From assembly GCA_964016885.1 (NCBI GenBank), contig OZ024764.1, positions 10,912,001 through 10,976,000 of the forward strand: a stretch of DNA of 64,000 bases, given 5' to 3'. Source of the stretch: Eledone cirrhosa (lineage: Eukaryota). Made by a program: the position numbers and the translations under genes. The stretch's first letter is position 1. Each line of letters starts with the position of its first letter. Under the pieces are notes generated by a model that was given only the letters and a program-made list of their open reading frames with translations, did no database searches and was not told the DNA's origin. Shown piece after piece: positions 2,281 through 64,000 of the stretch.

Positions 2281-2346
2281 TATTTTGTCTGAAGAAGGCA
2301 TAACATATTGTTAATATGATATCCCTGAAATATATATAACGAAATA
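2281..2346 (+). ncRNA. Type I hammerhead ribozyme motif (family A; element ~2098-2387)
   Basis: tattttgt-CTGAAGA-agg..catatt gtt aatatg..cct-GAAA-tatata-TA/acgaaata: 8-bp helix I, folded helix II, palindromic helix III. Confidence 0.8.
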
Positions 2347-2529
2347 AATATGGTTTTATAAATATAGTTTCCATTTATTTAATATCGTATATATATATAT
2401 ATATATATATATATATGTATATATATATATATATATATGTATATACATATATATATACATATATATAGATAGATAGATAAAAAGGATAAAGATCCCATAA
2501 CACCTTGTGGAATGAACACAACTGATTTT

Positions 2530-2684
2530 TTCTATAGTGGAAGACTCTACCTCAGTACATGACTGGTACTTTTTTTATGAACCTCGAAAGGGTTTGGTGG
2601 GATTTGAACTCAGATCACGCAATACGGCGGGACGAATACCTTAAAGTATTCTATCTGATGCCTTAACGACTCTGTCACTTTGCT
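2530..2684 (-). mobile_element. tRNA-derived SINE (Meta-domain-like), diverged
   Basis: Reverse complement of gagttcaaatcc..cctttcgaggtc..aaagtaccag shared with 5490 and 9567 copies. Confidence 0.6.
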
Positions 2685-4703
2685 GTATATATATATATAT
2701 ATATATATATATATATATATATATATATATGTATATATATATATATATATAATAATACATATGTATAAAAGTATATATATATATATATATATATATATAT
2801 ATATATGTATATATATATATATATATATATATGTATATATATATATATATATATATGTATAAAAGTATATATATATGAATACATATATATGAATATATAT
2901 ATGAATATATATGCGTATATATACATATATATGAATATATATGCGTATATATATACATATACAAACATGTACATATATTTATATGTTTATATACATGTAT
3001 ATATATGCGTGTATATATATATATATATATATACATGTACATACATATATATATATATACATATGTATATATATATATATATATATATATATATATATGT
3101 GTGTGTGTATATATATATATATATATATATATATATATATATACATATATATATATATATATATATATATATATATATATATATATATATGTATATATAT
3201 ATATATATATATCTGTAGGTGTCTATCGGAACGTGGGTAGCAAATGAAACCCAACCCCCCCCCCCCCCCCACGGGCTCCCCGACCCCCAACGTTCACGGT
3301 CAGCCAGTTGGTCACGCCTCGTTAATCCAGCTTGTTCCCGTGTCTCGTTGCAGTAACTCTCACCCCTCAAGTCTGTAGCCACTCAGCCGTGACCAGACAA
3401 ATCATCTCATCTTTACATCACCACCGCCGCCGCCATCACCATCACCATCATCATCGCCGCCGCCGCCGTCGTCGTCATCATCATCATCATCATCATCATC
3501 ATCATCATCAATGTCTTCAATATCATCAACATACATACACACACAGATGCATATATATATATATATGTATGTATGTATATGTGTGTGTGTGTGTGTAGGT
3601 GTGTAGGTATGTATATGTGTAGTTATATATATATATATATATATATATATATATATACATATATATATATACATATATATACATATATATATATATATAT
3701 ACATACACATATATATATGTAGGTATATATATAAACATATATACATATGTGTAGGTATATATATATATATATATATATATATATATATATATATATATAC
3801 ATATATATATATATATATATATATATACATATATATATGTAGGTATATATATAAACATATACATATATATGTAGGTATATATATATATATATTTACATAT
3901 ATATATATATATATATATATATATATATATATATATATATATATATATATATATACACATATATATATGTGTAGGTATATATATATATATATATATATAT
4001 ATATATATATATATATATATATATATATATATACACATATATATATATGTAGGTATATATATATATATATATATATATATATATATATATATATACACCA
4101 TATATATATAGGTATATATATAAACATATATATATGTAGGTATATATATATATATATATATATATTTATATACATATATATATATATATACCTACATATA
4201 TATATATATATATATATATATATATATATATATATACATATATATATATATATGTATATATATATATATATATATATATATATATTCAAAACAACGTCAG
4301 CGGAGGACGCGTTTCGCACCTTTCCGACAGACAGCCTTTCCCCCACCCCGGAAAACAACCCCTGTTGATGGATGTGAATCCGAAATATATAGCGACAATT
4401 AAATCTCTCCCAAGGTAACTCTCTCTCGTGCTGTTATTTTAATTTTATCCTTTATACTCTTTCCTTCATTCTTCTACACATCTCACACATCTTATACACG
4501 CCACGCATCTCAACGTACACCCACTTACATCTCTCTCCACCACCGGACCTTGTTACCCGGAGATTTACCCATTTGCATTGTCGAGGCTTCCAAACGACTT
4601 GAAGAAATTTACCTTATTATTCCACAATGCTTCAAGCAAACTTCAATACTCTCTTATCCTTACACCATATATATATATATATATATATATATATATATAT
4701 ATA

Positions 4704-4856
4704 TAGTAATAATAATAAAATTGAAGACTAAAATCCAAAGAGGGCTCGATAAGGAAAATATATATCAAATATATAAGAACCGTAGAGCAAATATTTATTA
4801 AAATAACGAAAGCAGCGATTCTTTGCTTAAACTTTAATCTGTTATTTTAATAAATA
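4704..4856. mobile_element. Family C hammerhead-bearing element, internally inverted; ribozyme 3' half starts at GAAA (4808)
   Basis: Matches 27000-27124, 29637-29810 and 40200-40262; flanked by (TA)n. Confidence 0.65.
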
Positions 4857-5489
4857 TATATATATATATATATGAAAAACAAGGGGAGAAGAATATTGCA
4901 TGGTTGCACATCGATTACATATTATAAAATTAGTCCCTCATCAGTGATTTGCCAACCATCATTGGTATTTCAATATATATATATATATATACAGGATACA
5001 GGTAATTACGTTTCATTGGTCTCTGTACACCAATTCATTATATATATATATATATATATATATATATATATATATATATATATATATATATATATATATA
5101 TATATATTTCGTTTCTGAATTTGTTTAGCAAGATTCTTTATCTGAAATCGTGTGTTGAAACCGATATTGTTATACTTTGGGAGGGTCAACCAACCAACCA
5201 ACCAACCAGAAATTTATAATTTGTAAATTTATAAATATATAATAAATTGAAGTGAAAGCAACTGGTGCGTATGTTTCTTATTGGCAACATGACCCTCCCA
5301 AAGTATAACAATATATATATATTTATATATATTTAATACATTAACAGAGAAAGCCTTAAGCGATACTCTGACCAACTCCATCTCACTCAACAAACATTAG
5401 GATATACCTAAGTATAATCCCAATTTAGTGTTTGGGGTGCTAACTAATCAGTATTCCGTGGATAGCTGGTTGTATTATTTTATATGAGA

Positions 5490-5650
5490 CATTCGGACGT
5501 CATGCTTTCCAGCATAGTTACGTCCCTTTACGATCTGAGTTCAAATCCCGCCGAGGTTGACTTTGCCTTTCATCCTTACGGGGTCGATAAAATAAAGTAC
5601 CAGTAATGCACTGGGTATTTGCTGGCCTTGTGCCTAAAGTAGAAACAATT
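5490..5650 (+). mobile_element. tRNA-derived SINE with Meta-like central domain
   Basis: B-box gagttcaaatcc followed by gcctttcatccttacggggtcgataaaataaagtacc; near-identical to 9567-9750. Confidence 0.75.
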
Positions 5651-5741
5651 ATTAAATAAACATCTCTTTCCTTCCAGACGATCGTTTCGTTATAAGATTT
5701 CTACAATTTGGGATATAGGTACCCCAGAGGTACGTACCCCT

Positions 5742-61419: not shown

Positions 61420-62367
61420 ATGGAAAATAAATTGTGTGAGAACAAGATTAAATATGAAACACAGTCTAAAAGTATTGAGTTACCTGATGAGATGCCAAAG
61501 AATACAGGAAAAACATCATACAGGTGTGATATCTGTAAAAAGTCATTCTCTCAAAAATTTAATCTCACCACACATCAGGCTATTCATACAGGAGTGAAAC
61601 CATATCACTGTGATATCTGTGGTAAATCATTCTCTCAAAAGGGTAATGTAAGTACTCACAGGCGTATTCATACAGGAGAGAAACCATATCAGTGTGATGT
61701 CTGTAGTAAATCATTCTTTCAACTAGGTGACTTAAGTAAACACAAGCGTATTCATACAGGAGAGAAACCATATCACTGTGATATCTGTGGTAAATCATTC
61801 TCTCGAAAAGATTATTTAACCACTCACAAATATACTCATACAGGAGACAAACCCTATTGCTGCAGTATCTGTGGTAAATCATTTTCTGTAAGTAGTGCCT
61901 TAACGACTCACCAACATATTCACACAGGAGAGAAACCATATCACTGTGATATCTGTGGTAAATCATTCCCTGAAAGTGGTAACTTAACAAAACATATACG
62001 CATTCATACTGGTGAGAAACCATATCATTGTGACATCTGTGATAAATCATTCTCTCAAAATTATATGTTAACCACACACAAATATACTCATGCTGGAGAG
62101 AAACCATATCACTGTGATATCTGTGGTAAATCATTCTCTGTAAAAAGTGTTTTGACTACTCACCAACGTATGCATACGGGAGAGAAAGCATATCACTGTG
62201 ATATCTGTGGTCAATCATTCTCGAGCAGAGGTAACTTAATTATTCACAAACGTGTTCATACAGGAGAGAAACCATATCACTGTGATATATGTGGTAAATC
62301 ATTCTCCCAAGCTGGCCACTTAACTAAACACAAATACATTCATACAGGAGAGAAACCATATCACTGA
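61420..62367 (+). CDS. C2H2 zinc-finger protein, 10 fingers, 315 aa
   Basis: Tandem C2H2 with TGEKPY linkers; ends in [12 protein letters not shown] because of a 2-bp deletion in an 11th finger. Confidence 0.92.
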
Positions 62368-62617
62368 TATCTGTGTTAAATCATCATCTCAGAAGAGATC
62401 TATAAAAGTAGCCTTAACAATATCAATGGCCATTGTATGAAAGAAATATTTTATATAACAATAAATATATTCACACATGTATGAAGATATTACAGTGTGT
62501 GAATACAACCTCACAACACTATTATAACAGTAGCACGCATGTAACACATGACAACGACTTTGTGTCAGATTTATATCAGAAACAATAATTTAATATCTTT
62601 ATCTTTCTCACTCACAC

Positions 62618-62798
62618 AGTGTTGACAAGATGGTTAGTGGAAGAAAAGCAATCATCTCTAGCTATCTATCTATTTTCTTATCTTTGGGCAATAAAAACAG
62701 CACCATCTATCTGTAAGTGTTGACAAGATGGTTAGTGGAAGAAAAGCAATCATCTATAGCTATCTATCTATTTTCTTATCTTTGGGCAATAAAAACAG
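62618..62798 (+). repeat. Direct duplication, ~98-bp period
   Basis: agtgttgacaagatggttagtggaag..aataaaaacag twice. Confidence 0.85.
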
Positions 62799-63213
62799 AG
62801 TTATGAGACAAATTAGTCTGGAGACTACATCATGTTCATATAGATCTATATTTTGATTTGGTTGCTATCCCCTTCCTAACACCAACCATATTACAGTGTG
62901 GACTGGGAGCTTTTTATCATGACATTGTACCATGCATGTGATTGTCATTTCCTGTGTGAGTCCCAAATTATTGACTTCTGACCTCATAATTTAATAAACA
63001 AAAATATAAATAAAACCGTCTTACTTTGAAATTATTCTCTTACCATTTTATATGTAAAATATCTGAGCAAGGCTTGTCGTGGCACAATAACATGCAGGAC
63101 TATATGTAAGTGAGATGAAAAACCCTGCTTCTGTACAGACACAGTGAGTGAAGTCCTGTCCAACCTTTGCTAGCAGAGAAAGTGAAATTTAAAAGATGAT
63201 TGATTATATATGT

Positions 63214-63360
63214 GAAGCGCATGATTTATTGGTTAGAGCTTTGGGCTTGCAATTGAAAGGTTGTGAGTTCGATTCTCAGACCGAGTGATGTGTTGTGTCC
63301 TTGAGCAAGACACTTTATTTCACATTGCTCCAGTTTACTCAGCTGTAGAAATGAGTTGCG
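63214..63360 (+). mobile_element. tRNA-derived SINE with V-like core
   Basis: gagttcgattc B-box, gtgtccttgagcaagacacttt; similar to 51479 copy. Confidence 0.72.
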
Positions 63361-63800
63361 ATACTGCCAAATCAATGGGTGGCAGTAGTTCCAGCTGCCA
63401 CCTTTCCACATCGAAAGACTGGTGTAGTGGTTCTGACAACAATGAGGCTTTGCAGATGATCAATACAAATTAACAATGGAAAGGTGCTCCAGCTCGAGTT
63501 AGAAGAGAACTATTGACCTTCAGGAGAAGCAGTGACCCCTGATTGTATTCAGCAACCAAAACAAATATGAAGTACACCAAATCCAATGCACCTAGGAGTG
63601 GCCCTGCTTCTTCTTATTTGCAAGTGTAAACTCTGCCAGATTAGATTAGATTAGATGTCTATATATATATATTTTTAATGTGGTGTACCCTTCGTGGTCC
63701 CGACTCTTTTCCTATATATGTTATTCCTGGTTCAATCGGGGGTAACCACAGTAAGTAAGGTACTCAATACATAGCAGAGTATAAATGTTTTAATATAGAA

Positions 63801-63900
63801 AAGCTTCTACAGGACTAGAACTGTTTAATTCGTGAGAAATCATCAGGAAGCTCATTGTTGATTTCTCACGAATGAAACAGTTCTAGTCCTGTAGAAGCTT
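63801..63900. ncRNA. Family E hammerhead present in both arms of a fold-back
   Basis: Minus arm: agcttc-CTGATGA-t ttc tcac gaa t-(T)AAA-cag..ctg-TA/gaagct; plus arm keeps GAAA but lacks CTGATGA. Confidence 0.7.
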
Positions 63901-64000
63901 TTCTATATTAAAACTATATATATAGACATCTAATCTAATCTAATTTGGCAGATTATATATATATATATTAATATAATATAATATAGAAATGGCTTCTACA

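Follow-up and report, generated by a model that had tools for sequence, protein, structure and literature searches.

The window analysed here, 64,000 nucleotides of the Eledone cirrhosa genome (GenBank assembly GCA_964016885.1, contig OZ024764.1, positions 10,912,001 to 10,976,000), is AT-rich and packed with (TA)n tracts, inside which lie short islands where type I hammerhead ribozymes can be drawn. Ten such islands had been interpreted in an original prediction as a set of non-autonomous mini-elements. The evidence assembled below makes it very probable that the islands are the 5'-truncated ends of Penelope-like elements (PLEs), five families being of Hydra type and one of Neptune type, together with two non-coding relatives; they were likely written into (TA)n by the reverse transcriptase (RT)/GIY-YIG protein of the elements. 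The hammerhead is so frequent because it falls within the last 30–170 bases before the inferred start of copying.

The window was searched with a strict descriptor consisting of the boxes CTGANGA, GAAA and UH with at least 4, 3 and 2 pairs in helices I, II and III, respectively. Three sites were passed, with cores at 2289 (+), 21316 (+) and 8212 (-), compared with a mean of 0.02 and a maximum of 1 in 100 island-wise dinucleotide shuffles. A relaxed descriptor gave 10 matches against 0.36 in the shuffles; three of these (23949, 24606 and 25252) look like AT-rich false positives, and the cores at 17124, 5748, 6761, 42612 and 42931 were missed by it. A type I hammerhead could be drawn at all ten proposed coordinates, which are the hammerhead ends, and two ribozymes that had been overlooked were added, at 5748 (+) and, with a U3-A8 core, at 7814 (+). 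Rfam reported no hammerhead in the window at the gathering score and none among 150 of the 473 weaker matches listed, a list dominated by microsatellite-driven miRNA models. The core at 9943 (-) was discarded as spurious, being the reverse strand of a tail hairpin (see below) and absent from two sister copies.

The ten sites fall into eight families, F1 (2281 and 8155), F2 (6756), F3 (17120), F4 (21311), F5 (29747), F6 (42609), F7 (42887 and 63801) and F8 (48396), each site being one copy of a large genomic repeat; the overlooked ribozyme at 5748 belongs to a further family, F9. The type I core and three helices, with helix I open, were found in the majority of copies of F1–F4 and F6–F9. Within the window, sound hammerheads were seen in the copies at 2281, 8155, 17120 and 21311, and five of the ten copies are short of a perfect ribozyme. 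The single A·A mismatch in helix I at 48396 is shared by the majority of F8, and the change of U4 to A (U4A) at 29747 is a trait of the whole of F5. The copies at 63801 (G12 changed to U), 6756 and 42609 (helix I worn to two pairs) and 42887 (5' strand of helix I gone at an inversion junction) are damaged members of families whose majority is sound. The G12-to-U change was also present in six of the 25 F7 loci picked with the 63801 copy (L115, L126–L129 and L131) and is therefore a subfamily trait, not the decay of a single copy.

First-look searches of the 3.0 Gb assembly returned 1,216 to 2,240 candidates per family for seven families. The DNA query for F1 gave none, yet a pattern of 35 bases found 22,780 exact matches; the exact counts for F5, F6 and F4 were 16,167, 7,441 and 1,129, and reversed controls gave 0. 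These four families amount to 47,517 exact motifs, a genome-wide lower bound of about one per 63 kb; the claimed density of more than one motif per 10 kb holds for the window. Among the family copies the 3' ends were exact and common and the 5' ends ragged. A TA tract lay at one of two fixed ends in 277 of 353 distinct copies from nine families and at 422 of 5,000 random anchors (8.4%), the end windows having been chosen after viewing the end histograms and tandem read-through having been scored as a miss; the suggested association with (TA)n is upheld. At 42887 and 63801 the TA contact in the window is weak or one-sided.

Longer copies of six families were found to run into RT–GIY-YIG frames, which bears out the suggested link to PLEs and overturns the description as mini-elements for eight of the ten sites. 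Those eight sites are the terminal 80–350 bases of protein-coding elements and owe their shortness to 5' truncation; the elements themselves are not small. On sequence grounds, F1, F5, F6, F7 and F8 are assigned to the Hydra type and F2 to the Neptune type, and the ORF links (ORF, open reading frame) set all six apart from retrozymes, which are non-coding. The window itself encodes no Penelope-type protein (tblastn with the F5 protein P0001).

The clearest case is F5, for which an open frame of 709 amino acids was present at two loci (L107 and L108; the two ORFs are 98.2% identical), in L108 within a pLTR-ORF-pLTR arrangement (pLTR, pseudo-long terminal repeat) of 3.24 kb together with an inverted arm. 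The distance from the end of the ORF to the ribozyme was 886–920 bases in eight of 25 loci. P0001 is a single ORF in which YRDDG (RT) precedes a C-terminal AYIG (GIY-YIG); it also contains SDKTG, CNCRNRADC, CDLC and CKH and lacks CCHH, and its atlas neighbours at 0.96–0.99 carry HTH_animal, with GIY-YIG and RVT_1 in some. For F1, a Hydra-type ORF (CNCRDRSKC, CDLC, CKH) lay upstream on the same strand in five of eight stretches, with a spacing of 1,317–1,342 bases in three arms. At the N-terminal RWK position, RWR was read in P0001 and in the F7 frame and MWR in an F1 frame. An ORF was located upstream of F6 in four of 25 loci; the F7 pLTR continued into a degenerate ORF with no TA break in one of 25; and F8 lay 600–1,840 bases past an ORF end in five of 20 loci (picked by ORF end) and formed the inverted arm in three. 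In F2, RT or endonuclease frames followed the pLTR in seven of eight stretches, and a second pLTR was found 3.5–3.65 kb further on in three. The F2 motifs are PADKGG, the linker CSRSRCITC (Cx4CxxC) and CSLC..YIGQT..EHL..RHF (CCHH), and Pfam gave RVT_1 at E = 2e-7 and GIY-YIG at 0.017, below the cut-off.

Three further associations were dropped. F2 adjoins a Hydra ORF in L144 and L193 with a TA tract between them, and is itself of Neptune type. F9 adjoins an ORF end in L210, and that ORF family has its own CCGAUGA ribozyme about 1 kb downstream. The Tx1/L1-like element near F8 in L220 (C1:354543000-354552999) was judged an independent insertion; it begins right where the F8 tail ends (L220:3650-8600) and comprises a zinc-knuckle ORF1 and an endonuclease–RT ORF2, broken.

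The alternative that the motifs match by chance and that MITE-like DNA transposons account for the palindromes (MITE, miniature inverted-repeat transposable element) merits almost no credence. Some cores are indeed spurious, as with 9943 (-) and the three AT-rich relaxed matches, but the excess of strict matches over shuffles, the covariation of helices described below and the unequal arms, variable centres and attached RT frames of the palindromes speak against it, and the family alignments and ORF links refute it. A second, improbable reading takes each of the eight families to be a small non-autonomous ribozyme retroelement that is complete in the form observed. The majority of copies are short in every family, and two families have non-coding units; against this, six families continue into RT–GIY-YIG frames, their 5' ends are ragged rather than fixed, and for F1, F2 and F5 the idea of a complete mini-element is already refuted. 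Non-autonomous subfamilies sharing these ends may exist.

Of the two non-coding families, one bears out the suggestion of retrozymes; for the six coding families that part of the proposal fell. F4 is a true tandem retrozyme, a young non-coding unit of 483 bp arranged in head-to-tail arrays of up to 10 units, with the ribozyme intact in 24 of 24 copies, a GC content of 0.39 and a longest ATG frame of 13 amino acids in the sense and 44 in the antisense direction. Its 40 scored matches were identical across 231 bases, and many genomic arrays contain two consecutive complete ribozymes, the window copy having one and a half. F3 is a non-coding unit of 1,853 bp, for which partial tandem copies and a sister subfamily were observed. 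Four of five F3 stretches gave no match to a PLE protein, the fifth having a fragment outside the unit, and a coding partner sought via the sister subfamily was not seen in 20 loci. F3 and F4 likely use a Hydra-type protein in trans.

Behind the islands lies a common architecture. Two sites about 60–140 bases apart, A and B, mark the ends of every Hydra-type family and also those of F3 and F4. Divergent arm pairs combined one A and one B end in 72 of 79 scorable cases (four AA and three BB; seven more were unscorable). A hairpin, RCTC-loop-GAGYRC, stands a few to about 20 bases past end A in F1, F3, F5, F6, F7, F8, F9 and F12, the last being the commonest island in the window; its closing pair differs between families, being either A-T or G-C, and it recurs past end B in the two or three families in which read-through copies display it, F3 and F5 among them. 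The presence of the hairpin at both ends of the non-coding F3 would point to a Hydra-type helper. Fourteen instances of the short-loop form were counted in the window, compared with a mean of 2.6 and a maximum of 9 in shuffles. Neither a tail hairpin nor a second end was seen in F2. By eye, the same motif follows the ribozyme in the coral element Hydra-2_Amil (supplement of Craig et al., 2021; PMC8557442). The count of eight families was correct, but the description of them as unrelated outside the core gives way, since the two fixed ends and the small hairpin are common to most of them. Tail-only islands of further families were also observed (8933-9141, 9881-10023, 21937-22140 and 1672-1821), bearing an RCTC..GAGTGC hairpin and no ribozyme in the part present.

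Conservation was examined in family alignments. In F1 the conservation was 0.98 for the core, 0.80 for the interior of helix II and 0.67 for N7, and the helices covary (helix II GC46/AT30/GT7; helix I AT45/GT41/GC4); in F6, N7 and loop 2 vary round a fixed core. Helix covariation, or a core better kept than the loops, was clear in F1 and partial in F6 and F9. In these alignments, selection on the fold appears to show where subfamilies have diverged (F1 and F6).

Several observations weigh against the interpretation of the islands as PLE ends. In F2, F3, F4, F5 and F8 the conservation of the core scarcely exceeded that of the remaining positions, and the F5 ribozyme is conserved like its flanks (4.6% non-consensus compared with 5.1–5.6%). 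The copies were gathered with ribozyme queries, and 30 F1 loci via a pattern fixing one strand of helix I, so that the sampling is biased toward conservation. Monomer folding gave the full ribozyme fold for two families only, F4, where it lay 2.1 kcal above the minimum, and F7; since not every helix was enforced in the constrained monomer folds, they carry little weight in either direction. Pfam was blank for P0001 and three other Hydra-type frames, as was a PDB search, and the clades were assigned by motifs. The F7 link consists of one locus, the F6 and F8 links of a minority of loci with decayed frames, and no coding partner was found for F9. As for the hairpin, F4 has just a near-match, situated past end B, and its end A lacks one; no hairpin follows end B in the sole F7 read-through.

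F5 departs from the canonical ribozyme. Its core is CAGAAGA (U4A) in 67 of 69 copies examined, and its exact genomic matches comprise 16,167 with U4A and 62 with the canonical U; the invariant U4 is thus not kept, and F5 appears to be a hammerhead-like variant. Helices I, II and III are intact, with 5, 3 and 5 pairs. At the six loci fetched for canonical copies, A was present in the sister arm wherever a sister arm was seen; the 62 copies therefore look like single back-mutations. A search of the F5 unit yielded no second hammerhead. Another Hydra-type family (L267–L280, for example C2:77166000-77170400), with about 1,200 candidates, has CCGAUGA (U4C) in five loci scored and CUGAUGA in one. 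Core changes are as a rule strongly harmful, and U4C still supports viroid infectivity (Perreault et al., 2011; PMC3088659); U4A is not named in the text of that paper. A U4A hammerhead was not found in the literature searched, outside which falls a paper on PLE hammerhead variants (PMC5785218).

Either position 4 would be tolerant in the F5 setting or cleavage would not be required. A doubtful though possible account makes the hammerhead a passenger, the elements moving without self-cleavage and the tail hairpin being the working cis-signal. The abundance of exact U4A copies, the near-identical intact ORFs, the want of a second ribozyme in the F5 unit, the apparent back-mutations and the CCGAUGA family all agree with it, and so do the reports that Naiads thrive without hammerheads, which may parasitise PLEs (Craig et al., 2021; PMC8557442), and that cleavage was observed for one of nine Xenopus dimers (Li et al.; 10.64898/2026.07.22.740005). 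It has to contend with the retention in F5 of the three helices and every other core base, with the fixed core of F1 and F6 where N7 and loops change, and with the activity of some core variants, including U4C in the viroid (PMC3088659). We regard as rather unlikely the related proposition that the two start points are set by the shared RNA hairpin, that cleavage is dispensable, and that a catalytically dead U4A family is among the most abundant young elements.

If the islands are truncated PLE ends, as we prefer, the following course of events may be envisaged. The element protein would nick both strands of a TA tract, and reverse transcription, guided by the hairpin, would be primed at A on one side and at B on the other. 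Most events would stop within a few hundred bases and leave ribozyme-bearing stubs. An insertion of this kind would leave TA on both sides, and the tracts would therefore gather nested stubs. By analogy with published work (PMC4209133; PMC7229834), the hammerhead may cut a tandem precursor RNA into units, which may circularise; the dimer would be the main cleaving form, helix III being short and palindromic (PMC4209133). Nearly all of the window copies are likely dead on arrival, since they are single and truncated and several have a damaged fold. The islands are listed in Table 1.

Table 1. Hammerhead-bearing and related islands of the window (positions count from the first base of the window)
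Feature	Position	Strand	Remarks
F1 two-armed Hydra-type stub	2096..2387	+	Inverted tail ~2102-2197, hairpin 2180-; + arm ends at end A on (TA)n
F1 + arm hammerhead, intact	2281-2346	+	Predicted cut after 2338
F9 hammerhead stub	5736..5843	+	Core 5748, predicted cut after 5803; coding partner not found
F2 stub, pLTR of Neptune-type element	6725..6881	+	Minimal hammerhead, core 6761; helix I eroded here
F14 hammerhead, U3-A8 core	7800..7857	+	TTGAAAA at 7814; core in 5/8 distinct copies
F1 copy, another subfamily	8024..8444	-	Tail and hairpin 8103-; second tail on + at ~8344-8444
F1 subfamily hammerhead, intact	8220-8155	-	Predicted cut after 8163
F3 stub	17017..17369	+	Last 353 bases of the 1,853-bp non-coding unit; ends at end B
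F3 hammerhead	17120-17177	+	Palindromic helix III
F4 retrozyme	20857..21464	+	1.26 units of the 483-bp non-coding repeat; half ribozyme 20857-20911
F4 hammerhead, intact	21311-21394	+	Predicted cut after 21389
F5 stub	29638..29813	-	Last 176 bases of Hydra-type element; intact ORF elsewhere
F5 hammerhead	29797-29747	-	Core CAGAAGA (U4A)
F5 further pieces	4706-4853, 27002-27127, 40193-40260		
F6 Hydra-type stub	42605..42682	+	Minimal hammerhead, core 42612; helix I eroded here
F7 fold-back junction	42873..42960	-	Both arms truncated, with cores at 42931- and 42939+; 5' strand of helix I missing
F8 stub, old Hydra-type family	48342..48515	-	Long helix II, core 48481; one helix I mismatch
F7 two-armed insertion	63745..63922	-	- arm with hammerhead core 63846 (G12 to U), hairpin 63780 and end B
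F7 two-armed insertion, + arm	63856-63922	+	Ends at end A
F12 islands	5881-6092, 7217-7417, 7498-7614, 10078-10213, 15288-15334, 26424-26624, 40935-41051, 48111-48304		

The F12 islands consist of the 3' half of a U3-A8 hammerhead and the tail hairpin, the first core box being absent in eight of eight; five full-length examples were found at loci outside the window. Two more families with a U3-A8 core were noted at loci L112, L039, L033, L123 and L338. A (TA)n-ended family, F11, lies at 7080-7178 (+) and 4874-4972 (-). It has a conserved CTGANGA with GAAA 25 bases upstream and none downstream, and resembles the 'half core' described for Naiad ends by Craig et al. (PMC8557442); its cores at 7112 (+) and 4944 (-) were rejected as hammerheads, neither a type I nor a type II fold being drawable. 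At 23700-25400, a unit of about 650 bp is repeated three times in tandem, and every copy has a CTGANGA box but lacks a GAAA box.

Other features of the window are clustered C2H2 zinc-finger frames, four of them long (37872-38906, 46202-47065 and 55429-56298 on the - strand; 61378-62391 on the + strand), which we take to be a tandem gene cluster of the type expanded in octopuses. A 72-bp tandem repeat family forms several arrays on both strands (18255-19567, 30695-31681, 43563-43690 and 53817-54010). A tRNA-like match at 40666-40726 (-) (Rfam, 30.7 bits) is likely the head of a short interspersed element, and a LINE reverse transcriptase fragment lies at 16248-16691 (-).

Hydra elements with hammerheads and a (TA)n preference were described by Craig et al. 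in 27 families, including Hydra-1_Obim of Octopus bimaculoides (PMC8557442). The Hydra-type families of the window share with that clade the single RT–GIY-YIG ORF, the DKT motif, the CxCx5C linker, CxxC and CxH with no CCHH, a type I hammerhead near the 3' end, insertion into (TA)n, an inverted truncated arm and a one-sided tail. They differ in that at least five distinct families occur in one window; in the 3.24 kb unit of F5, its RWR for RWK and its U4A core, the Hydra cores in File S2 of that paper all being CTGA; and in tails of about 60–140 bases, compared with a one-sided tail of 30–40 bp, the origin of which was given as unknown. F2 agrees with the Neptune clade of the same paper in the pLTR-ORF-pLTR unit of 3.5–3.65 kb, DKG, the Cx4CxxC linker, GIY-YIG with CCHH, microsatellite ends and a minimal hammerhead, and differs in that all F2 frames seen are broken and its ends lie on (CA)n/(TA)n.

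Metazoan non-LTR retrozymes, described as non-autonomous PLE derivatives in 2020 (PMC7229834) and 2026 (10.64898/2026.07.22.740005), resemble F4 in being non-coding and head-to-tail, with 39% GC, one type I hammerhead per unit, arrays and PLE-type ends. At 483 bp, F4 exceeds the units of about 300–390 bp of the former report and lies inside the 51–972 bp of the latter; unlike those retrozymes, F4 occurs in dispersed two-armed (TA)n insertions. F3, at 1.85 kb, belongs with non-autonomous PLEs and not with typical retrozymes. A 2014 paper (PMC4209133) described minimal hammerheads that derive from truncated PLEs on a genome-wide scale. In published genome sets, too, each genome has many consensus families, for the most part single motifs left by truncated PLEs, as well as opposite-strand pairs 100–700 bases apart, palindromic helix III and the U3-A8 variant; in the portions of those sets that were available, the variants do not include U4A. 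In the main text of a repeat paper on O. vulgaris (PMC13282606) the words 'hammerhead', 'ribozyme' and 'Hydra' are absent.

The window families are further members of published kinds of element, since Hydra-type hammerhead elements in (TA)n and retrozymes had both been published. Two features are apparently new, namely the U4A core of a coding family that is both abundant and young, and the hairpin behind two ends; neither was found in the literature searched, and 'hairpin' and 'stem-loop' are absent from the main text of Craig et al. (PMC8557442). The function of the hammerhead in PLEs and the origin of the one-sided tails are stated as open in published papers. The E. cirrhosa genome offers a matched test set for both, with an intact Hydra-type ORF, a variant ribozyme, canonical sister families, non-coding passengers and a candidate shared start signal. 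Annotators, too, can record tiny TA islands and palindromes, which number in the tens of thousands, as PLE ends instead of as unknown repeats or MITEs.

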